From the NCBI GenBank assembly GCA_049903315.1, contig JBNGBT010000002.1, forward strand, positions 64,001 through 128,000: DNA of 64,000 nucleotides. The letters are read 5' to 3'. The DNA comes from Candidatus Cloacimonadota bacterium. GTDB taxonomy: Bacteria; Cloacimonadota; Cloacimonadia; JGIOTU-2. Made by a program: the position numbers and the translations under genes. Below are positions 1 through 16,627 of the stretch, piece after piece. Below the pieces are notes generated by a model that saw only the letters and a list, made by a program, of their open reading frames with translations, searched no databases and was not told the origin of the DNA. Every line of letters starts with the position of its first letter. Position 1 is the stretch's first letter.

Positions 1-35
1 AACCACACAGACCTAAAAAATCTAAATTTCTCATC

Positions 36-1067
36 TTAGTTTATTAGTTCAAAATACTCAAATGGATTAATAAATGTTACATCATTTTGAATTAAAAAAT
101 CAATAATATTCTTAAATTCTGAAAACCTATTTCCATCCCATGAATTTGGATGTATCTGTAAAGCAAGATAGAACTCTTGTGAATTATAATTATTTCGAAA
201 TTGTAGGTAATCAGGATTATGCGTGGGAAACTCGATTTCTGCAAGCCGCGGTAAATTTAATCTTGAGAAATCTTCAGATCCAAAATACCATACTTTAATA
301 TCATCTACATATTCAATTGCTATGAGTGTCGTATCTTCAAAGGCATTTCCTGGTGCACCAAAAGTATGCAAAGTAATACCTAATTTCTCTTGTGCTAAAT
401 TCTGGGTCATGAGGAGATGTTCCTTTTGGTATTCAAGGGACGTGTTCCAAAATTCATTATAAGTCTCACCATCTTCATTTACACCATTTAGTATGTGATT
501 ATAACCATGATTCCAGATTTCAAAATTGTCATTCTCAGCAAGATCCTTTAAATAAGAATAATATGCATTATTTCCTTTTTCAAGAGAATCTCCAATTAAA
601 CCAAGACTCGCTTTAATATTTTTTGATTTAATATAATTAATAAATGATTGCCATTGTTCTGAGATAATATTTATCGAATTAAAACGAACATCATCAGCCT
701 TTAAAAATATTAATTGTTTAAATATTAAAATTTCTGTGGAATTAGTATGAATATTATTATTTGAATCTTTTATTTCTACCTTAACTACTGCTGTACCTGT
801 GAAGTCTGGTGCATAATATACTATTTTAGAACCTTTCATTTTTATATATCCGATATTTGTTGTCCATTTAGCAGCGCGACATGAATCAGTTCCTATTGGC
901 ACACTAATTTCAATTGTTGTTGAATCTTGAATTCTAAGCAATTTATCATGTATATTAAATGAAATATCTGATTCATAAGCGGGAGAGTTAATTTGTTCTG
1001 TGCACTGATAAAATAAAAAAGTAATAACTAATAATATTAAAAGTCGGCTAATTTTTTTCATAATCAC
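36..1067 (-). CDS. Putative lipoprotein with C-terminal polysaccharide deacetylase-like (NodB/DUF2334-type) domain
   Basis: N-terminal hydrophobic stretch ending FLFYQC (lipobox-like); CE4-type motifs 'LKADD', 'EIWNHGYNH', 'TFGAPGN', 'LQIHP'. Confidence 0.65.
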   Translation of the reverse strand: MIMKKISRLLILLVITFLFYQCTEQINSPAYESDISFNIHDKLLRIQDSTTIEISVPIGTDSCRAAKWTTNIGYIKMKGSKIVYYAPDFTGTAVVKVEIKDSNNNIHTNSTEILIFKQLIFLKADDVRFNSINIISEQWQSFINYIKSKNIKASLGLIGDSLEKGNNAYYSYLKDLAENDNFEIWNHGYNHILNGVNEDGETYNEFWNTSLEYQKEHLLMTQNLAQEKLGITLHTFGAPGNAFEDTTLIAIEYVDDIKVWYFGSEDFSRLNLPRLAEIEFPTHNPDYLQFRNNYNSQEFYLALQIHPNSWDGNRFSEFKNIIDFLIQNDVTFINPFEYFELIN

Positions 1068-1260
1068 TTATTTGCTCAATCCTCTTCGCATGCATTAAAA
1101 AATTAAAATTTTATACAATATGAAGTTAAGATGTTTTTCTACATTTCTCATAGTATTATCCAGTAAAGTATCCTTTGGATAACATTATTATTCTTTAAAA
1201 TTCTCACTGTAAAATTTGCATTTATTGACACAATTTTCAAGAATCTTTTTGTCAAATATT

Positions 1261-3456
1261 ATGAAACCCATATATCTCGACTATAATGCAACTACGCCAC
1301 TTGCACCTGAGGTGGCGGAAGCAATGAATCCCTTTTTGGAGGAGTATTTCGGCAATCCGTCAAGCTCGCACTGGTATGGTGTGCAGACGCGTAAAGCAGT
1401 GGAAAAAGCACGCGCACAGGTTGCAGCACTCATTCATGCCAATTCGGATGAGATCATCTTTACAAGTGGTGGTTCGGAGTCAAATAACTTTGCGATCAAG
1501 GGTATCGCATATGCAAAGAAGTCTGTTGGCAATCATATTATTACTTCATCGATAGAGCATCCGGCAGTTGTTGAAGTGTGTGAGTATCTCAAATCACAGG
1601 GCTTTGAAATAACTTATATTCCTGTTGATGAGTACGGCGTGGTGAATCCCGATGATGTGGAAAGAGCAATAACTCCGCAGACAATTCTTATTTCCATCAT
1701 GCACGCCAACAACGAAGTAGGTACGATCCAACCGATACAAGAAATTGCTGAGATCGCGCATAAACATGAGATTATTATGCACACGGATGCAGCGCAGTCA
1801 ACTGGGAAAATTCCGGTTGATATGGATGAACTTGGCATAGATCTGCTTTCCATTGCAGGGCATAAACTTTACGGACCAAAAGGAATTGGAGCACTGTACA
1901 TACGGCGTGGTGTTAAACTCGAAAAGATCATCCACGGCGCAGATCATGAGCAGAATCTACGAGCTGGTACGGAGAATATTCTTTGCGATGTCGGACTGGG
2001 AAAAGCGTGCGAAATAGCTGGTCAAAACTTGCAGAAAAATATGCAACATATGAAAGAGATGAGGGACTTACTACATCAGAAAATAGAGGACTCCGGACTT
2101 GATTTTATTTTGAACGGACATCCAGAAAAACGGTTGCCGAATACACTCAGTCTCTCCTTCCGAAATGTTGAAGCAAATACGGTCCTTTCAGAACTTACAA
2201 ACGTTGCAGCTTCTGCAGGTGCAGCGTGCCATTCCGACCAGATCGATGTATCTGCGGTGCTGGAAGCAATGGATATACCGCTCGAATATGCAATGGGAAC
2301 AATACGCTTTTCAACCGGAAGGTTCACCACCAAGGATGATATCGAGAAGGCAGCGGAAGAAGTCATAAAAGTGATAATGAATTTCCAGGGAAAAGGTGAA
2401 GAAACAGTCTCCAAAGCAGGAGCTGAAATCAAACTTACTCACTACACACATGGCATGGGATGTGCCTGTAAGATCGAGCCGGCTTTGCTGGAAGATATAT
2501 TGAAGAACCTGCCGATTCCTGACGATCCAAAAATTTTAGTAGGCACACAAACTGCAGATGATGCTGCGGTGTATAAAATAAATGAGGAAACCGCACTTGT
2601 AGTCACACTCGATTTCTTCACACCCATTGCAGACGATCCATATGATTTCGGCGCAATCGCCGCATCTAATGCGTTGAGTGACATTTATGCGATGGGAGCA
2701 ACTCCTTTGTTTGGCTTGAATATCGTTGGATTTCCCTCGAACAGACTGCCGATGTCAGTGCTGGAAAAAATTCTACAGGGAGCGCAGAGTAAAGCACAGG
2801 AAGCAGGTATTTTTGTGATAGGCGGTCACACGATAGAGGATACTGAACCGAAATACGGCATGGTCGTCATCGGTAGTGTGCATCCCGAAAAAATATGGAA
2901 AAATATCGGTATGCAAAAGGATGATGTACTGATCTTTACTAAACCAATCGGCACGGGCATTCTTTCGACTGCATTAAAAAGAGGTTTGCTCGATGATGCA
3001 CAGAAGGATATGCTGATCTCGACAATGGCTGAGTTGAATAAAAAAGCTGCGGAGATTCTCCACAATTATGCTGTTCATGCCTGTACAGATGTAACTGGTT
3101 TCGGTCTACTCGGGCATCTCATGGAAATGGTACAGGGGAGCAATGTGGCAGTTGAGCTTAATGCAGAGAATGTGCCGGTTCTTGATGGCGTATTCGAACT
3201 GACAGCAGGAAATGTCATACCGGGTGGGACGCTCTCGAATATGAAGTATGTCGAACCAAGTGTTGAGTGGAGCTCGAAATTATCAAAGGTACAGAAAATT
3301 GTTCTTTGTGATGCGCAGACTTCTGGCGGATTACTCGCAGCAGTGGGGGAAAAAGTTGCACATGAAATTGTGCGAGAACTGCATGATGCAGGCATCACCC
3401 ATGCGCAGATTATAGGAAAGGTAATTGAGGGAAAGCCGATTATTAAAGTGGTGTAA
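1261..3456 (+). CDS. selD: Fusion of class-V PLP cysteine desulfurase/selenocysteine lyase (NifS/IscS-like) and selenide,water dikinase (SelD)
   Basis: N-half: YLDYNATTP, GNPSSSH, FTSGGSESNN, HTDAAQS, GHKLYGPKG (PLP Lys), SAGAAC. C-half: GMGCACK, DDAAVY, TLDFFTP, NALSDIYAMG, GGHT, TDVTGFGLLGH, DAQTSGGLL. ATG at 1261 preferred over TTG at 1216 because it opens directly on the NifS N-terminal motif. Confidence 0.92.
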   Translation: MKPIYLDYNATTPLAPEVAEAMNPFLEEYFGNPSSSHWYGVQTRKAVEKARAQVAALIHANSDEIIFTSGGSESNNFAIKGIAYAKKSVGNHIITSSIEHPAVVEVCEYLKSQGFEITYIPVDEYGVVNPDDVERAITPQTILISIMHANNEVGTIQPIQEIAEIAHKHEIIMHTDAAQSTGKIPVDMDELGIDLLSIAGHKLYGPKGIGALYIRRGVKLEKIIHGADHEQNLRAGTENILCDVGLGKACEIAGQNLQKNMQHMKEMRDLLHQKIEDSGLDFILNGHPEKRLPNTLSLSFRNVEANTVLSELTNVAASAGAACHSDQIDVSAVLEAMDIPLEYAMGTIRFSTGRFTTKDDIEKAAEEVIKVIMNFQGKGEETVSKAGAEIKLTHYTHGMGCACKIEPALLEDILKNLPIPDDPKILVGTQTADDAAVYKINEETALVVTLDFFTPIADDPYDFGAIAASNALSDIYAMGATPLFGLNIVGFPSNRLPMSVLEKILQGAQSKAQEAGIFVIGGHTIEDTEPKYGMVVIGSVHPEKIWKNIGMQKDDVLIFTKPIGTGILSTALKRGLLDDAQKDMLISTMAELNKKAAEILHNYAVHACTDVTGFGLLGHLMEMVQGSNVAVELNAENVPVLDGVFELTAGNVIPGGTLSNMKYVEPSVEWSSKLSKVQKIVLCDAQTSGGLLAAVGEKVAHEIVRELHDAGITHAQIIGKVIEGKPIIKVV

Positions 3457-3706
3457 TTTAACCACTGATTAACACGAATTGAAATCAATAAAGGAAATTC
3501 CCAAATGTATGATGAATCTCGCGATCGATTTCAAAATATTCAAGGATTCTGCCATGTAGCGCAAGATTCCGATTTATCAAGGCGTATTCCGGTTTACAGG
3601 AAGGAGACATATCTTGCGTATTCGACATCCATTTTCATTTCATTACACCGAGACAGGTCGGAATGTTAAGTTACTTCCCGCTGTAACGAGAAAACTAAGT
3701 GATTGC

Positions 3707-3734
3707 TTGACAACCTCACCTAAAAACCTAATCT
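3707..3734 (+). promoter_or_regulatory. Putative sigma70 promoter for the 3756 gene
   Basis: TTGACA (3707-3712), 16 nt spacer, TAATCT (3729-3734); SD GGAGGT at 3747-3752 before ATG 3756. Confidence 0.55.
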
Positions 3735-3755
3735 ATTTTCATATTCGGAGGTACA

Positions 3756-4793
3756 ATGAATAGTAAAAAATATATAAAGAGAGTTGTTGCATTGGCAGCA
3801 ACGCTAATCGCAGTATCTGCTGTATCACTTTCTGCGGATATTTTACTCTGGGATAATGATAACTACTCCACAATTGAAGATCCGGAAGGTGCTGGATATG
3901 TCGGATGTGAATATGCACTTGAAAAAGCATTCAATAACATGACTTTATCCTACACGACCTTAAGTTATCTGCCCACAAATCTGAGTGATTATGACATGTT
4001 GTTCATTACACTCGGTCACTGGTGCTTTGGTTGAGGAAGCACTCCTCCGGGCCAGGTTGGCTCAATCGAACAGCAGATGATCATCGATTTTATTGAATCC
4101 GGTAAATCGGTATATATAGAAGGCACAGATGTTGCTTCGGGTTTGCAGGGAACGTCACTTTTTGACTACTTTGGAAACTCATTTGACGGAGAGGGTGGCA
4201 ATATGAATGTGCAAGATCTTGCGGGTGTTCCGGGCTCGTTTGCTGATCCTATTATGGTTGATTATCAGTACTTTTCAGAATCAGATTATGGTGTGGATGA
4301 GCTTGGCGCAGCATCTGCAGGAATATGTGTCCAATCCCAGGATATGATTGGCAGAGTTACTTATTGGGACGGTCCTGATGGCACTTATAGAGCAATGATG
4401 AGCTCGATCCTGTTCGGTTCAATAATCGATGGAACAGGTAACAACAATAAAGCTGCACTCCTGAGCCGTTATTATTCCTTCATGAAAATTCCCCCTGTAA
4501 GTGTCGATCCGCCAAATTCACCATCAAATGACATTATTCTGCAAAATTATCCCAATCCATTCTCAGCTTCTACCTTGATTTCTTACTCAATCCCTCCCCA
4601 TCAAAATAATATTTCTCTCGAAATATTTGATATCAAAGGGAGAAAAATTAAAGAATTTTCTTCATTGCAACAGGACGGCACTATTGTCTGGGATGGTTCA
4701 GATCATTTCGGAAATAAAGTGTCTAATGGTATATATTTGTACAAATTCCGGGGAGTGGATAGTGACGTGCATAAAATGATGTATATAAAGTAA
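3756..4793 (+). CDS. Putative secreted selenoprotein, 345 aa: signal peptide, CxxU motif (C90-F-G-U93), alpha/beta domain, C-terminal T9SS-type/FlgD-Ig-like sorting domain; in-frame TGA at 4032-4034 read as Sec
   Basis: ORFs 3756-4034 and 4077-4793 are in the same frame, joined by TGA plus 14 sense codons (GSTPPGQVGSIEQQ); sequence TGG TGC TTT GGT TGA GGA; SECIS-like hairpin downstream; gene follows selD; 4077 ATG has no SD or signal peptide. Confidence 0.8.
4049..4063 (+). promoter_or_regulatory. Candidate bacterial SECIS hairpin
   Basis: GGGCCA-GGT-TGGCTC, 6-bp stem with one G:U and a G-first loop beginning 20 nt after the UGA. Confidence 0.65.
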
Positions 4794-4815
4794 CTGAATT
4801 AGCTTTTTATTATAT

Positions 4816-4847
4816 GCCCTCAAATTATTATTTTTGAGGGCTTTTTT
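4816..4847 (+). terminator. Rho-independent terminator after the putative selenoprotein gene
   Basis: GCCCTCAAA-(8 nt)-TTTGAGGGC followed by TTTTTT. Confidence 0.85.
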
Positions 4848-4950
4848 ATTCTTATTAATTATAATAACTTATTTATATTATGTAATTTGTATAATATTTG
4901 ACAAGAAAACACGGTACTACGACTTTTTAACAAATTTCATGCAGTTCTTC

Positions 4951-4976
4951 GCTGGTTCTCCCAACCAGCATTTTTT
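4951..4976 (+). promoter_or_regulatory. Terminator-like hairpin in rimP-nusA leader (possible attenuator)
   Basis: GCTGGTT-CTCCC-AACCAGC then ATTTTTT, ending 18 nt before the rimP ATG; TTGACA at 4898-4903 upstream. Confidence 0.6.
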
Positions 4977-4994
4977 GTATTTAGAAATGAGAGT

Positions 4995-5480
4995 ATGATA
5001 GATAAAAATGCACTAAAGAAAAGTATCGATCGCATCTGCGACGAAACAGGTTTTCAGCTTTATGACTGGAAACTGAAACGGAGAGGGAGCGCTCATAATC
5101 TGGTTATATATATTACAAAGCCAGTGGGCGTAACCCTTGATGATTGCGAGGTTTATAGCAGAATGCTTGGTGATGACCTGGACATGAACGATGTCATCGA
5201 AACCAGATATTATCTTGAAGTTTCTTCTCCGGGTTTGTCGCGTCCGCTTTTTACAATTGAACATTTTCAAAGTGCAGTTGGTGAGTTTGTGAAAATTACT
5301 TTTCTCAATGCTGAACGCAATCATGAAACGATACACGGAAATATCTCTGGTGTAGATGAGCAGATGATCACTCTCGCAAGCGAAAATGGAGAAGTGAGAT
5401 TGATCAATATATCCGATGTCCAAAAGGCAAAAACTATATTTGTGTGGCCCCGTACATCATCAAAAACTAAAAAGGAATAG
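4995..5480 (+). CDS. rimP: Ribosome maturation factor RimP
   Basis: GVTLDDC, YYLEVSSPGLSRPL motifs; first gene of nusA operon. Confidence 0.95.
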   Translation: MIDKNALKKSIDRICDETGFQLYDWKLKRRGSAHNLVIYITKPVGVTLDDCEVYSRMLGDDLDMNDVIETRYYLEVSSPGLSRPLFTIEHFQSAVGEFVKITFLNAERNHETIHGNISGVDEQMITLASENGEVRLINISDVQKAKTIFVWPRTSSKTKKE

Positions 5481-5488
5481 AGGTTATT

Positions 5489-6724
5489 ATGGCATTTAAT
5501 TTGATTTCTATTATTGAAGAATTTTCCCGACTGAAGCAGATCGATAGAGAAAAGATTGCTGAAATCATTAAAGAAAGTCTGGAATCCACTCTTCAAAAAA
5601 AGTTGTCTGAAGAGACTGAACTTGCCGTTGAAATTAATTTTGATGAAAGCGAAGTTGTCGCAAAATTCGATGCTGTCGTTGTTGAAGAACCTACAGGTTT
5701 CCTCGATGAAATAGTCCTTGAAGAAGCTCGTAAGATCAATCCCGAAGCAGAGCTCGGAGATATCATACCTCTTGAAATGCCGGTGTCTGATTTCGGGCGC
5801 AAGACAATACAGTCTGCACGGCAGGCAATTATAAATAGGTTTAGAGAATCCGAGACAGAAAAGGTCAAAGTCGACTATGAAAAGCAAAAGGGTGAGATCA
5901 TTTCCGGTGCGGTGAAGAAAGTAGAATATAACGGCTACATCATTGATATTGGATTTACCGATGCGCTTCTGCCAACAGAAGAACAGGTGGAAACCGAATT
6001 TTATAAAGCCAATGATTTTCTGAAAGCATATGTTGCAAGTATTCGTCAGTCAAAAAGCGGAGTGCGCGTAATCCTTTCCAGAAAGCGTCCCGAATTTATC
6101 ATAAAACTGTTCGAAAATGAAATACCGGAAATTGCTGACGGCATTGTCGTGATCAAAAAAATCGTCCGTGAACCGGGATTTAGAACCAAAGTTGCTGTTG
6201 CAAGCAATAACGAGAATGTCGATCCTTACGGCAGCTGCATCGGTTCTAAAGGAATCAGGATTGGGGAGATCCGTAAAGAGCTTAATGGTGAACAAGTCGA
6301 TATTGCTCTCTGGAGCGATAACCCTGAAGATTTTATACGAAATGCAGTTGGTCCCGAATTGGTAAAGCGAGTCTACCTGGCTGATAAGGGACGATTTGCT
6401 CAGATAATTGTGGATGAAGATAATAAAAATATTGCGATAGGCAAAGGCGGCAAGAATATCAAGCTTGCTGCAAAACTGACCAACTATAAATTGGATGTTC
6501 TTCTTGAAGAAGAGTATGAAGAGATCGCTGCAAATGAACGCCGTATTACGAGTCAAATCTTCGATCTCGACGGTGTCCATGAAAAAGTGGGTAAGATCCT
6601 TCATGAAGCAGGTTATACTTCTGTACAGGATATTCATCTTGCCACTGTGGAAGAGTTGACTCAGATTGAAGGCGTAGGCGTAAAAACTGCTGAAAAGATC
6701 AAAGAATCTGCGAAATATTTTTAA
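5489..6724 (+). CDS. nusA: Transcription factor NusA
   Basis: FGRKTIQSARQ, S1 and KH domains (REPGFRTKVAV, CIGSKGIRI, AIGKGGKNIKLA), C-terminal HhH-like repeats. Confidence 0.97.
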   Translation: MAFNLISIIEEFSRLKQIDREKIAEIIKESLESTLQKKLSEETELAVEINFDESEVVAKFDAVVVEEPTGFLDEIVLEEARKINPEAELGDIIPLEMPVSDFGRKTIQSARQAIINRFRESETEKVKVDYEKQKGEIISGAVKKVEYNGYIIDIGFTDALLPTEEQVETEFYKANDFLKAYVASIRQSKSGVRVILSRKRPEFIIKLFENEIPEIADGIVVIKKIVREPGFRTKVAVASNNENVDPYGSCIGSKGIRIGEIRKELNGEQVDIALWSDNPEDFIRNAVGPELVKRVYLADKGRFAQIIVDEDNKNIAIGKGGKNIKLAAKLTNYKLDVLLEEEYEEIAANERRITSQIFDLDGVHEKVGKILHEAGYTSVQDIHLATVEELTQIEGVGVKTAEKIKESAKYF

Positions 6725-6945
6725 TGCCCAATAAAGCTTCGAATAACGGTCATATACCTGTTCGAACATGTGTGATATGCAAAGAAAAAGGTTCGAAGCG
6801 CTCGATGCATAGATTTGTGATACAGAAAGGCGCTATCCTCTTTGATGAGAAAAAAAATCTCGAAGGTAGAGGATATTATTTCTGTGATAAGGAAAAGTGT
6901 AGAATTTCGTTAGACTCATGGTTGAAGAAAGTAAAGAAAAAGTAG
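6724..6945 (+). CDS. ylxR: YlxR/DUF448 family RNA-binding protein
   Basis: PVRTCVIC...GRGYYFC..C; conserved position after nusA. Confidence 0.85.
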   Translation: MPNKASNNGHIPVRTCVICKEKGSKRSMHRFVIQKGAILFDEKKNLEGRGYYFCDKEKCRISLDSWLKKVKKK

Positions 6946-7229
6946 CAAATATGCTACGGATTGCAAGAAAAGCAAAAGCTGTTTCTATCGGCAGACTCGC
7001 TGTTGAGAGAAGCATCAAGAAAAATGAAACTAAGCTTATTTTTGCAGGTAAGAAAGAGAATAATTTCATGAGAAAACGAGCACAGGATTGTGCATCTAAA
7101 GGGATAAAGATATCTCATCTCTTTGATGATAGTGAATTAAGCACTATATTCGGACGGCAAAAACTGACCCTTGTAGCAGTAGTTGACAAGAACTTCACAA
7201 AGGGCATAAATGAGATTTTAGAAAATTAA
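6918..7229 (+). CDS. L7Ae/YlxQ family RNA-binding protein
   Basis: LRIARKAKAVSIG...ELSTIFGR...VAVVDKNF; position between ylxR and infB. Confidence 0.8.
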   Translation: MVEESKEKVANMLRIARKAKAVSIGRLAVERSIKKNETKLIFAGKKENNFMRKRAQDCASKGIKISHLFDDSELSTIFGRQKLTLVAVVDKNFTKGINEILEN

Positions 7230-7238
7230 AGGATATAT

Positions 7239-9620
7239 ATGGATCAAATTAGAGTGTATGAACTGGCTCGCGAACTGAAGATCTCACCTCAAGCGCTTAT
7301 CTCAATTCTGAAGAGTCTCAAGGTGAAAGTGAAAAGCCACATGAGCTACCTGGAAGATGATACTGTTACTCAGGTGAAACAGATGTTCCAAGACCAGTTA
7401 GATGCCGCGAAAGCACGACAGAAGCAGAGAAAGAATTACCAGCAAGAGCAGCGGCAGAAACGCCTTGAAAAAGTCAAAAAAGAAGAAAAGAAACAAACTC
7501 AAATAAAAGAAGAGCCAAAGGAAAGAAAGAAAGAAGAAAAGGAAGAACCAAAGAAGAAATCTGAAAAACGGTACGAAAAACCAAAATATCCTTCCAAAAA
7601 ATCAGTCTCAACAGAAAAAGAAAAAGAGAAGCCAAAAGAAAAAGAAAAAACAACGGTTGAAACACCCAAAATTCTTTCTGCAAAAGAAAAAGAGAAGCAA
7701 AGAGAAAAAGCATATAAAGATAAGAAACAGAAAATTCTTGAGGAAAAACAGAAGAAGTTCTTTGATCAGCAAAAGATCAAGGGCAATATAAAAGCAACGC
7801 TCACAAAAGACCCCAAACGCAAAAAATATAAAAAAGAAAAAACAGAAGTTGAAGAAGAAGTGACCAAGATCATTATCAGTGAATTTACCTCAGTTTCCGA
7901 ACTCGCAAAGATCATGGATAAAAATCCCACTGCGATAGTTGCGAAGTTCATGGAAATAGGGAAAATGGTTACTATCAACCAACGACTGGATAATGAATCT
8001 CTTATTATGATTTGTGATGAATTCAATTTTGATGTTGAGTTCGAAGATCAATACGGGAAAGAAATTCTTGAAATTGATGAAGAAGATAGTGAGAAATATG
8101 AAGATGTAGAACGACCTCCAATAGTCGTTGTCATGGGTCATGTTGACCATGGTAAGACCTCAATTTTAGACTATATCCGTGAAGAGAATGTTATTGCTGG
8201 AGAAGCAGGAGGCATAACACAGCATATTGGTGCATATCAGGTTGAACATAATGGCAAAAAAATAACGTTTATTGATACGCCGGGTCATGAAGCTTTTACA
8301 GCCATGCGTGCACGAGGTGCTGACATCACAGACGTTGCAGTTATCGTTGTTGCTGCTGATGATGGAGTCATGCCACAGACTATGGAAGCCATTGATCATG
8401 CAAAAGCTGCAGGAATTCCCCTTATATTTGCCATTAACAAAATTGATAAACCTGCTGCTGATATCGAAAAGGTGAAAGTACAGCTCTCACAGAAAAATAT
8501 CCTTCTCCAAGGATGGGGTGGTGATATAGAATCTGTTGCATGTTCTGCGAAGACCGGTGAAGGTCTCGGAGAACTGCTGGATACAATATTGCTGGTATCC
8601 GAAGTCGAAGAACTTACTGCAAAATATGATCAGAAAGCTGAAGGTACAGTTATTGAAACCAAGCTTGATAAGGGCAAAGGTCCGCTTGCAACTGTACTCA
8701 TATTAAATGGAGTCCTTAAACCTGGTGATATTATCATATGCGGAGCTCAATACGGTCGTGTCCGACTTATGCTCGATGAACGGCAGAATGAACTTGCGGA
8801 ATGTCGTCCTTCAGGCGTTGCACAAGTTCTTGGTTTGAATGGTGTACCTCAGGCAGGTGATACCCTCAATGTTGTTGATGATGAGCGCAAAGCAAAAGAT
8901 ATCTGTTCAAAAAGGCAACAAGTGATACGACAAAGGCAGATCGCTACTGGAAAGGGAGTTACGCTCGATAATATCTTTGATAAAATCCAGGAAAGCGAGA
9001 TCACTTCTCTCAATCTTATCGTGAAGGGTGACACTGATGGCTCGGTCGAAGCATTGTGTGATGCACTCCAGAAAATTCGCAATGAAGAAGTAGGCGTGAA
9101 TGTGGTTCATCGAGGTGTGGGCGGCATTGTCGAAGCTGATATTGACCTCGCAACTGCATCAAAAGCTATTATTATTGGATTCCATGTAAGACCCAATGCT
9201 GAAGCTCGCGCAGCAGCAGAAGTGAACCATGTGGATATACGTTTGTATGATATTATTTATGAAGCTATCGACGAAGTGAAGAAATCTCTGGAAGGATTGC
9301 TTGCACCAACGATCAGAGAAGAACATCTTGGTACAGCAGAAGTAAGAGAAATCTTTAAAATTTCTAAAATAGGCACTATTGCCGGATGTATGGTCACAAA
9401 AGGAAAGATCACGAGTAATGCACTTATGAGACTTTTCCACGATGATATTAAAGTCTATGAAGGAACTGTTGAAAGTCTGAAACGTTTCAAAAACGAAGTT
9501 AAAGAAGCAACCGAGGGTCAGGAATGTGGAATTTCGATTGTTGGTTTCAATGATATCAAGGTCGGCGATGTTATTGATGCATATATTAAGATCGAGGAAA
9601 AGAAAAAATTAGAATTATAA
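7239..9620 (+). CDS. infB: Translation initiation factor IF-2
   Basis: [10 protein letters not shown]-terminus, [21 protein letters not shown] GTPase motifs. Confidence 0.98.
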
Positions 9621-15295: not shown

Positions 15296-16627
15296 ATGAA
15301 AAAACATATTTTTATCATAATCTTAATCACTATTCTCCCATTTGGTCTTCTGGGTCAATCTAAAATGGATTTATCCCAATCGTCTTATCAAATGATACAA
15401 TACAATATTTCGGTTGTGGGAAATGTACGTTATCCGGGCACTTATATGTTACAAGCAGATCAGCGTGTATTCGATGCAATAAAACGTGCCAACACTTATA
15501 TTGACGAAAATGGAAATCCACGTTTTAGTCCACCTGAAAATTCTTCTACTCGAAATATCACCTTAAAAAATAAAAATGGAATTTCCATTATAGACATTGA
15601 AAGATTTCTTCGCTTGGGTGATGAAAAACATAATCCATATATTCAGGATGGGGACATTATCATAGTGCCATCAATAGAAGAAAATGTTGTTATAACTGGC
15701 GCTATAAATAATCCTGGCGAGTTAGAGCTTATAAAAAATGACCACATTTTGGATATAGTCATGCTTTCAATGGGATTTTCTGATAACGCATATTTAGACT
15801 CGATTGAAGTTGTTCGTTTTGTAAATAATTCATCCAATACCGAAATGATATTTGTTAATTTTAATGATATTTTAGATAATCCAAATAGTGAACAAAACAT
15901 TGTTTTAAAAAATGATGATAGGATATATGTAAGATCCATTCCAGAATATCATAGAAAAGAAGGTGTCCTGATTTCTGGTGAGGTGGAATTTCCTGGTGGT
16001 TACGCAATTGAGGATGGAAAAACTACGTTATACGATATTTTAATTGAGAGTGGTGGACCAACCCAAAAAGCAGATCTTCAAAATGCTTATCTTAAAAGAC
16101 AAAGTAGAGAAGATGTAGTGGATACAGAATTTGAGCGGCTTAAAATTATGTTAGTTGAAGATATGACTCCACTTGAATATGAATATTTTAAGACTAAATC
16201 AAGGGAAATGCGAGGGAAATTCGCCACTAATTTTCAGAAACTCTGGTTTGAGAATGATCCGGAGTATAATTTTTTACTTAAAACGGGTGATTTCATTTAT
16301 ATTCCAGACAAAACCGTGACAGTAACAGTTTCCGGACAAGTAAAAAATCCAGGTCTTGTAACATTTGTAGAAGGCAAAAATTATCTCTACTACATTGAAA
16401 AAGCCGGCGGTTTCGCCTGGCGTGCCCGTAAAGGCAAGATGCGTCTTATAAAAGCAAATACAGGAGAGTGGCTCAAGCCCAAAGAGGATACTCCTATAGA
16501 TGTGGGTGATATGATTTTTATTCCTGAAAAACCTGATATAGATTATTGGGTATTAACAAAAGATATAATGAGCATTGCCGCCCAGCTCGCGACAGTGATC
16601 ATAGTGATACAGAATGTATCGAAATAA
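15296..16627 (+). CDS. SLBB-repeat polysaccharide export protein (Wza/KpsD-like)
   Basis: Signal peptide; repeated 'V.V.G.V..PG' SLBB motifs with 'D.I.IP' ends. Confidence 0.8.
   Translation: MKKHIFIIILITILPFGLLGQSKMDLSQSSYQMIQYNISVVGNVRYPGTYMLQADQRVFDAIKRANTYIDENGNPRFSPPENSSTRNITLKNKNGISIIDIERFLRLGDEKHNPYIQDGDIIIVPSIEENVVITGAINNPGELELIKNDHILDIVMLSMGFSDNAYLDSIEVVRFVNNSSNTEMIFVNFNDILDNPNSEQNIVLKNDDRIYVRSIPEYHRKEGVLISGEVEFPGGYAIEDGKTTLYDILIESGGPTQKADLQNAYLKRQSREDVVDTEFERLKIMLVEDMTPLEYEYFKTKSREMRGKFATNFQKLWFENDPEYNFLLKTGDFIYIPDKTVTVTVSGQVKNPGLVTFVEGKNYLYYIEKAGGFAWRARKGKMRLIKANTGEWLKPKEDTPIDVGDMIFIPEKPDIDYWVLTKDIMSIAAQLATVIIVIQNVSK

Follow-up and report, generated by a model that had tools for sequence, protein, structure and literature searches.

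The window, meaning the whole 64,000-nucleotide stretch of Candidatus Cloacimonadota DNA that was analysed, carries near its start a gene of 345 codons with one in-frame TGA (Table 1). The frame opens with ATG at 3756, passes through TGC (Cys90) at 4023–4025 and TGA at 4032–4034, and runs with no further stop to TAA at 4791–4793. Standard gene calling yields two open reading frames at this locus, of 92 and 238 amino acids. The initial annotation had interpreted them as one gene split at the TGA and encoding a CxxU motif, and this interpretation stands: the residues around the codon read H-W-C90-F-G-U93-G-S-T-P-P-G, and homologues align unbroken across the junction.

Table 1. Features of the CxxU gene and its surroundings (positions in the window).
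Feature	Position	Strand	Basis and remarks
NifS-SelD fusion, upstream gene	1261..3456	+	Pfam/NCBIfam domains
Possible sigma-70 promoter, perfect −35, weak −10	3707..3734	+	By eye; failed consensus scan
Shine-Dalgarno GGAGGT	3747..3752	+	3 nt 5′ of ATG; same in the two closest relatives compared
Exported (predicted) CxxU selenoprotein gene, 345 codons with TGA93 = Sec	3756..4793	+	Frame reading, homologue alignment
Predicted signal peptide, residues 1–27	3756..3836	+	Charge, hydropathy and homologue starts (pattern only)
Class I glutamine-amidotransferase-like domain, residues 28–249, nucleophile elbow without Cys	3837..4502	+	Predicted structure, fold matches
C90-F-G-U93 motif (TGC ... TGA), loop after third core strand	4023..4034	+	Inside an insertion missing in Sec-less relatives
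SECIS-like hairpin, 6-bp stem, GGU loop 20 nt past UGA	4049..4063	+	Folding, family comparison
T9SS type A-like C-terminal sorting domain	4548..4790	+	Pfam, NCBIfam models
Intrinsic-terminator-like stem-loop and T tail	4816..4849	+	Scan; stem itself 4816–4841

It had also been claimed that the first part bears the ribosome-binding site and a signal peptide, that one promoter and one terminator flank the whole, and that the gene directly follows selD. The Shine-Dalgarno sequence is present, and the N-terminus is basic and then hydrophobic, the rest of the protein having no hydrophobic segment. The terminator-like stem was recovered by a scan, whereas the promoter fell below the consensus scan, with a perfect TTGACA at 3707–3712 and a −10 box matching at three of six positions. 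The neighbouring selD proved to be a fusion of a cysteine desulfurase/Sec lyase-like domain with a Cys-form selenophosphate synthetase, in which Cys, not Sec, occupies the SelD site.

The region 3700–4850 is identical in the three DNA assemblies compared (contigs, not raw reads, which may stem from the same DNA). Since at least 95 homologous loci carry the TGA as well, the codon is not an assembly error. A global reassignment of TGA was ruled out, as it ends 349 of the 1751 long ORFs with a complete stop in this genome. An RNA contig from a relative spans 4209–4550 only, with the TGA outside it, and a search of positions 1–8000 of the window against Rfam gave no match. A second small hairpin is predicted at 4033–4047, directly 5′ of the SECIS-like one; it includes the last two bases of the UGA, and its outer pairs are kept mainly through Gly and Pro codons. 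Further along, a presumed rimP-nusA-infB operon is followed at 15296–46945 by a long gene cluster, apparently of surface-polysaccharide type, that takes up much of the window.

Selenocysteine machinery and the SECIS-like hairpin

The genome (G000, 96% complete) was checked for selA, selB and selC, and all three are present on the contig of the gene. The tRNA-Sec gene (selC), selA and selB lie in a row 14–18 kb upstream of the gene (10–14 kb before the window start), with about 11 kb of unrelated genes between selB and nifS-selD. A paralogue of the CxxU gene in the same genome has the same TGA. Three further genes with a TGA, named from their sequences, presumably encode a second SelD (C55:243640-244683, + strand), a peroxiredoxin with the TGA in a T-x-x-U site (C11:43699-44427, − strand) and a C-GCAxxG-C-C-like protein (C11:485045-485509, + strand). 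The genome holds both a Sec-SelD and the Cys-form NifS-SelD fusion.

Other secreted proteins of this genome show similar features. A secreted beta-helix protein gene has an in-frame TGA and a hairpin (C69:9698-11842, equal to L253:1698-3842). Just 5′ of selC, two genes for secreted, tail-bearing proteins are split by TGA in a U-x-x-C motif, namely C22:43298-45499 and C22:48072-49994 (L252:7286-9496 and L252:12072-13991), with the motifs S-T-S-U-G-Y-C and G-T-G-U-G-G-C. Both have PKD domains, one of them also with a beta-helix match, and the second has a TGA counterpart 5′ of selC in another genome (G017).

The hairpin downstream of the UGA fits the bacterial SECIS model and covaries. The published rules (PMC13188914) ask for a loop of 3–9 nt with G in one of the first two places, 16–37 nt after the UGA, and a minimum free energy of at most −7.5 kcal/mol; the query hairpin reaches −8.0 for a 21-nt window. 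Across the family, the hairpin has 5–7 bp and starts about 15 nt 3′ of the UGA. Among the loci of the matches listed (see next section), loop and spacing agree with the rules in 89 of 94 and the energy in 56 of 94. The mean energy over these 94 loci is −7.8 kcal/mol, compared with −3.2 for synonymous recodings of the same peptides. The natural sequence falls in the best tenth of such recodings at 83 of 94 loci; in two control windows it does so at 12 and 20 of 94.

Mutual information, calculated with no fold assumed, ranked two stem pairs as the top column pairs, which are Watson–Crick in 67 and 60 of 94 loci, against 29 and 22 after shuffling. The covariation score of the first 19 loci was reached by none of 500 shuffles. 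These compensatory changes answer the question of a conserved SECIS element raised in the initial annotation. From one subfamily to another the stem shifts by one or two columns, and the encoded residues change along with it. Because of this shift, RNAalifold applied to 19 loci failed to pick up the SECIS stem and gave other, weak helices. The hairpin was assessed instead by a count of the named structure, the synonymous-codon test and mutual information. Taken alone, the query hairpin does not exceed dinucleotide shuffles in stability (z from +0.3 to −1.1). Of 1072 candidate TGAs scanned across the genome, 15 passed the hairpin filter, including those of the query, its paralogue, the second SelD and the peroxiredoxin, the last two having the same kind of hairpin as the query.

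Conservation of the codon and its match to the tRNA anticodon

A domain profile was searched against 232 genomes of the phylum (E ≤ 1e-10), and the best 150 of 176 matches were listed. The profile matches 103 of the 232 genomes. At least 95 homologous loci in at least 74 genomes bear one TGA each, with up to three copies per genome, and among the matches listed it stands at the same codon in all 95, none having TAA or TAG there. A Cys lies three residues before the TGA in all 94 loci analysed among these matches (one locus at a contig end was left out).

The distribution follows the selenocysteine machinery. Among the matches listed, selB or tRNA-Sec was found in 71 of the 74 genomes with the TGA form, the other three being 59, 64 and 92% complete; the most complete of them (G198) has the TGA form with neither gene found. 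Of the 116 genomes where neither was found, these three are the only ones with the CxxU family. The largest family of the phylum has selB or tRNA-Sec in none of 98 genomes, and its domain-profile matches are only weak (15 of 98 genomes, best E 2e-16). These conservation counts are descriptions and not tests, because related genomes are not independent.

It could be argued that the TGA is a real stop, with two genes, a pseudogene, an assembly error or read-through as Trp behind the pattern. Gene callers do split the locus, and among the best 150 of 1799 library proteins matched by the domain profile (E ≤ 0.001) many begin just past the TGA and one has W at the site; one library protein is identical to the second ORF of the window at 230 of 238 positions. 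This explanation can hardly be maintained against a TGA present in 95 of 95 loci among the matches listed with no TAA or TAG, a continuous alignment, one predicted fold across the junction, a covarying hairpin, and a tight match to the Sec machinery and to the anticodon of tRNA-Sec. The insertion of Sec at UGA93, supported by very strong genomic evidence, is close to certain.

The match to the anticodon comes from loci with TGC at the Sec position. Nine such loci occur in six genomes, and the hairpin is kept in all nine. All six genomes have a tRNA-Sec with a GCA anticodon, next to selA wherever the locus was read, and three of the six have a UCA copy and a second selB as well. In the phylum, the GCA type is found in 25 of 108 genomes with a tRNA-Sec match, but in none of the 67 TGA-form genomes with tRNA-Sec found. 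A loose tRNA pattern had been dropped for a specific one, as it matched 199 of 232 genomes by chance. In a quick tree, the TGC forms fall in two places among the TGA forms, and five of the six genomes come from one family. The back-translated Cys-form pattern retrieved only eight loci from 185,579 genomes, all in Cloacimonadota.

Because the hairpin is kept and the TGC forms occur only in genomes with tRNA-Sec(GCA), these apparent Cys homologues are probably selenoproteins too. Recoding of sense codons by tRNA-Sec has been described, for instance at UGU in Aeromonas salmonicida (reviewed in PMC10778597), and a tRNA-Sec of Cloacimonetes type is mentioned in PMC5330540. The A. salmonicida case shares a tRNA-Sec with a Cys anticodon and a SECIS element, whereas here the codon of a whole family tracks the host anticodon, with TGC in six of six GCA genomes that have the family. 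The protein library contains, as protein sequences, four more CxxC proteins, one CxxW and one motif-less protein, so true Cys forms may exist but would be rare. Relatives lacking the pair amount to one R-x-x-C locus, one C-x-x-W protein and one motif-less protein. The GCA type of tRNA-Sec, common in the phylum, was seen at L117 and L120-L123. Four genomes (G054, G154, G155 and G161) have both GCA and UCA types and two selB genes each, and possibly run two parallel Sec codes in one cell.

The family extends beyond the phylum genomes. The TGA pattern was found in at least 120 metagenome stretches; 80 were examined, giving 61 homologues and 19 chance matches, and such chance matches in GC-rich DNA had a hairpin in 11 of 19 cases. 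A separate clade (clade 2), with a longer hairpin, makes up 26 of the 61 homologues. In clade 2, tRNA-Sec was located within 8 of 20 loci scanned and selA lies beside nine loci. At eight loci (L135, L148, L161, L175, L177, L191, L193 and L199) a family member with the longer hairpin sits directly beside selC-selA-selB. As a lead, clade 2 is probably Bacteroidota, because the nearest Atlas clusters of one of its neighbour proteins are mostly from that phylum. A TGC-form homologue used as query in the ESM Atlas retrieved unnamed clusters, also mostly of Bacteroidota, with DUF4960 as a lead only. The family pattern had no match in viral contigs.

Predicted export, fold and origin of the motif

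The C-terminal sorting domain proposed in the initial annotation was recovered by two models: Por_Secre_tail matches residues 265–339 at 27.1 bits (cut-off 27), and TIGR04183 scores 29.6 (cut-off 23). The genome contains SprA and six PorV-family genes above the cut-off; a search of it for GldN gave no match, but its controls were silent as well. About 150 genes of this genome share a T9SS-type tail, a very large secretome for 3 Mb. A type IX system 'may be present' in the phylum (PMC11285876), and its members are reported to secrete many peptidases (PMC8542988). In all likelihood the chain crosses the inner membrane by means of its signal peptide and is directed by the tail to a T9SS-like translocon.

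The AlphaFold2 model of residues 28–249 (pLDDT 90.8, pTM 0.91; motif loop pLDDT 73) forms one folded domain across the TGA junction. The best fold matches are class I glutamine-amidotransferase (GATase)-like domains, non-catalytic ones leading, with 2gk3 at Z 16.6 and an rmsd of 2.9 Å over 186 residues. The mature domain is therefore predicted to be a non-catalytic class I GATase-like scaffold. Its structural kin include STM3548 (2gk3), 3rht, the GH42 trimerisation domain (5xb7) and the IFT52 N-terminal domain (5fms), at Z 15–17 and rmsd 2.8–3.2 Å. They have the same fold and also lack the catalytic Cys, but identity to them is 8–12% and none contains CxxU. A sequence search of the PDB returned no match (best E 0.48).

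The presumed nucleophile elbow reads I-E-G-T-D (T124) and is variable in the family, with no Cys, and no Cys or His is conserved in that part. The elbow and the third core strand were placed from the order of secondary structure and the usual topology of the fold. Conserved acidic residues are D33, D35, E122 and D181, while W32 and R200 are specific to Sec forms. Sharing a fold with amidotransferases, the protein might use Sec as the catalytic nucleophile of a GATase-fold hydrolase or transferase (an amidase, a glyoxalase or a DJ-1/PfpI-like deglycase), and W32 and R200 suggest a pocket. Furthermore, a GATase-fold selenoprotein has been catalogued (PMC13188914). That protein has the same type of fold, but its GxUxG is a nucleophile-elbow pattern, whereas the query has a CxxU loop inserted one strand earlier, an elbow holding T124 in place of Sec, and no match to the selenoprotein model (NF004836) at E ≤ 10. 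As no conserved His-Glu pair of the amidotransferase triad was found in the family and an invariant partner Cys at −3 typifies a site made of two residues, a catalytic nucleophile is very unlikely.

The C-x-x-U-G-x-T-P stretch is an insertion, missing in 116 of 116 Sec-less domains aligned, and all CxxU and CxxC domains fall on one branch (SH-aLRT 96) of the quick tree, built from 88 of 242 domains with the motif columns included. Among the best 150 of the 1799 library proteins, most are C-terminal halves starting after the TGA or Sec-less domains, and several of the latter are modules of secreted C25, S8 or M14 peptidases. Homology of the query domain to the accessory domain of these peptidases (C25 being gingipain-like) is clear. 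Judged by sequence comparison, the CxxU stretch was inserted into a module that secreted proteases use as an accessory domain. In the peptidases the module lacks C-x-x-U-G-x-T-P, whereas here it is the main module, and no peptidase domain was found in any of 15 Sec- or TGC-form proteins scanned. Family members have about 340–960 residues, nearly all with a signal-like start and a sorting tail; larger ones add Ig-like, MAM, NIDO or fn3 modules, and the query represents the minimal form.

The initial annotation had not recognised a familiar selenoprotein family, and the comparisons point the same way. Pfam and NCBIfam identify the sorting tail only, and none of 23 domain sequences matches a selenoprotein model at E ≤ 10. 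Table 1 of the 2026 catalogue of 119 families (PMC13188914) lists no such family, its sole GATase-fold entry being the GxUxG protein, and the words secreted, periplasm and signal peptide are absent from that paper. The bacterial CxxU selenoproteins given there (SelW-like, AhpD/CMD-like, GrdA, UshA-like and the FCYXU TonB receptor) share UGA recoding by an in-frame hairpin and the Cys at −3; the present family differs in its GATase-like scaffold, its signal peptide and T9SS-type tail and its adhesin-like partners, and no family model matches it. MccSep of Geobacter sulfurreducens (PMC13510729) is likewise exported and a selenoprotein, and annotation splits its gene at UGA too, but it is a periplasmic multiheme cytochrome c, unrelated in sequence and fold. 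A literature search for selenoproteins together with type IX secretion or Cloacimonadota found no report joining them beyond a tRNA study; subscription journals and supplements of prediction papers lay outside its scope and may list members. This is a real and large family of selenoproteins with predicted export, and apparently an uncatalogued one.

Proposed function and significance

The preferred reading is that the Cys/Sec pair cycles in redox reactions at the cell surface, acting on disulfides, oxidised cysteines or peroxides, with a probability of roughly 60%. SelB and Sec-tRNA would bind the hairpin 20 nt downstream and insert Sec at UGA93, and the chain would then cross the inner membrane and reach the translocon. 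From the order of secondary structure, the C-x-x-U-G-x-T-P loop would be inserted at the face of the GATase active site. The pair would alternate between selenolate-thiol and selenenylsulfide states and reduce its substrates at or beyond the surface, for example by opening disulfide-bonded protein substrates or by keeping the many secreted cysteine proteases active. Against this reading, the predicted fold does not look thioredoxin-like: all 50 best fold matches are GATase-like, none is a thioredoxin, CxxU lies in a loop after a strand, and the shared fold shows no function.

Electrons for re-reduction might come through DsbD, a thioredoxin-lipoprotein, TlpA and the secreted UxxC proteins of the same locus. 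On one strand 5′ of selCAB lie genes for a DsbD-thioredoxin-like protein, a CxxC lipoprotein, a TlpA-like protein, DUF6029, an S8 peptidase and the two secreted UxxC proteins; the DsbD-, lipoprotein- and TlpA-like names derive from motifs and from Pfam matches of counterparts in other genomes. In G017, the redox block runs unbroken through selCAB and nifS-selD into the CxxU gene, and in G170 two family members are followed by DsbD, TlpA and thioredoxin genes. In the query genome, dsbD-thioredoxin, the CxxC lipoprotein, tlpA and DUF6029 form one run (C22:32855-37854). DUF6029 may provide such a reducing relay with its component in the outer membrane. It is present, however, in 192 of the 232 genomes, and in 91 of the 98 that make up the largest, Sec-less family, so the relay is not specific to the CxxU protein. 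DsbD/CcdA-like neighbours recur in only two clusters of 3 of 163 loci, and the neighbours that recur overall are sel genes, secreted hydrolases and thiol-disulfide proteins. As a source of electrons, the DsbD relay is a tentative proposal.

The sel-gene neighbours lend themselves to another account, in which Sec attacks polysulfide, elemental sulfur or selenium species at the outer surface and passes a perselenide on, thereby initiating uptake, detoxification or selenium storage on behalf of the neighbouring NifS-SelD and SelABC. The gene lies directly after nifS-selD in 10 of 163 loci and next to selA in 9 of 163, the tRNA-Sec of the clade-2 loci fits as well, and the best-matching sequencing runs are recorded as seawater or marine metagenomes. 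However, selenoprotein genes often cluster with sel genes with no metabolic link, many paralogues with adhesin-like modules are far from them, and the protein has neither a heme nor a rhodanese domain. Reduction of polysulfide and selenite by a periplasmic selenoenzyme is on record (PMC13510729). On balance, such a transfer at the surface is unlikely.

It could also be proposed that the pair is a soft-metal site (Hg, Cu, Zn or As) that scavenges or buffers metals at the surface, with no redox role. Sulfidic, metal-rich habitats are typical of the phylum, the acidic residues named above are conserved, and CutC lies beside 3 of 163 loci and an arsenate-reductase-type gene beside 4 of 163. CxxU is also listed for predicted mercury-transport and heavy-metal proteins (Table 1 of PMC13188914). 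Each protein has only one pair, however, and no metal transporter is among the recurring neighbours, which makes metal binding distinctly unlikely.

If the redox reading is placed in its wider setting, a bolder picture emerges, possible rather than probable: Cloacimonadota and some Bacteroidota-like anaerobes would have an overlooked, T9SS-exported selenoproteome (the CxxU family, two UxxC families and a beta-helix family, all in one genome), supplied with electrons by DsbD, TlpA and an outer-membrane barrel for extracellular selenium redox chemistry. The CxxU protein would catalyse redox reactions with a fold that is not known to do so, Sec would be near-obligatory, 'Cys' forms being UGC-recoded, and the clade-2 gene, which travels with selABC, may maintain the Sec trait.

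The family adds a large member, present in at least 74 of 232 genomes of the phylum, to the catalogue of bacterial selenoproteins, with a fold and compartment previously unlisted. Databases systematically show its genes in two pieces. The usual way of discovering selenoproteins, by seeking Cys homologues, nearly fails for it, because the members that look like Cys forms follow a tRNA-Sec with a Cys anticodon. The family therefore offers natural genes on which UGC recoding can be tested, and it shows cleanly how an RNA structure can steer the sequence of a protein. Finally, it suggests that uncultured anaerobes carry out selenium-based redox chemistry at their cell surface, and hints at a reason why protein-degrading anaerobes keep the costly Sec machinery.
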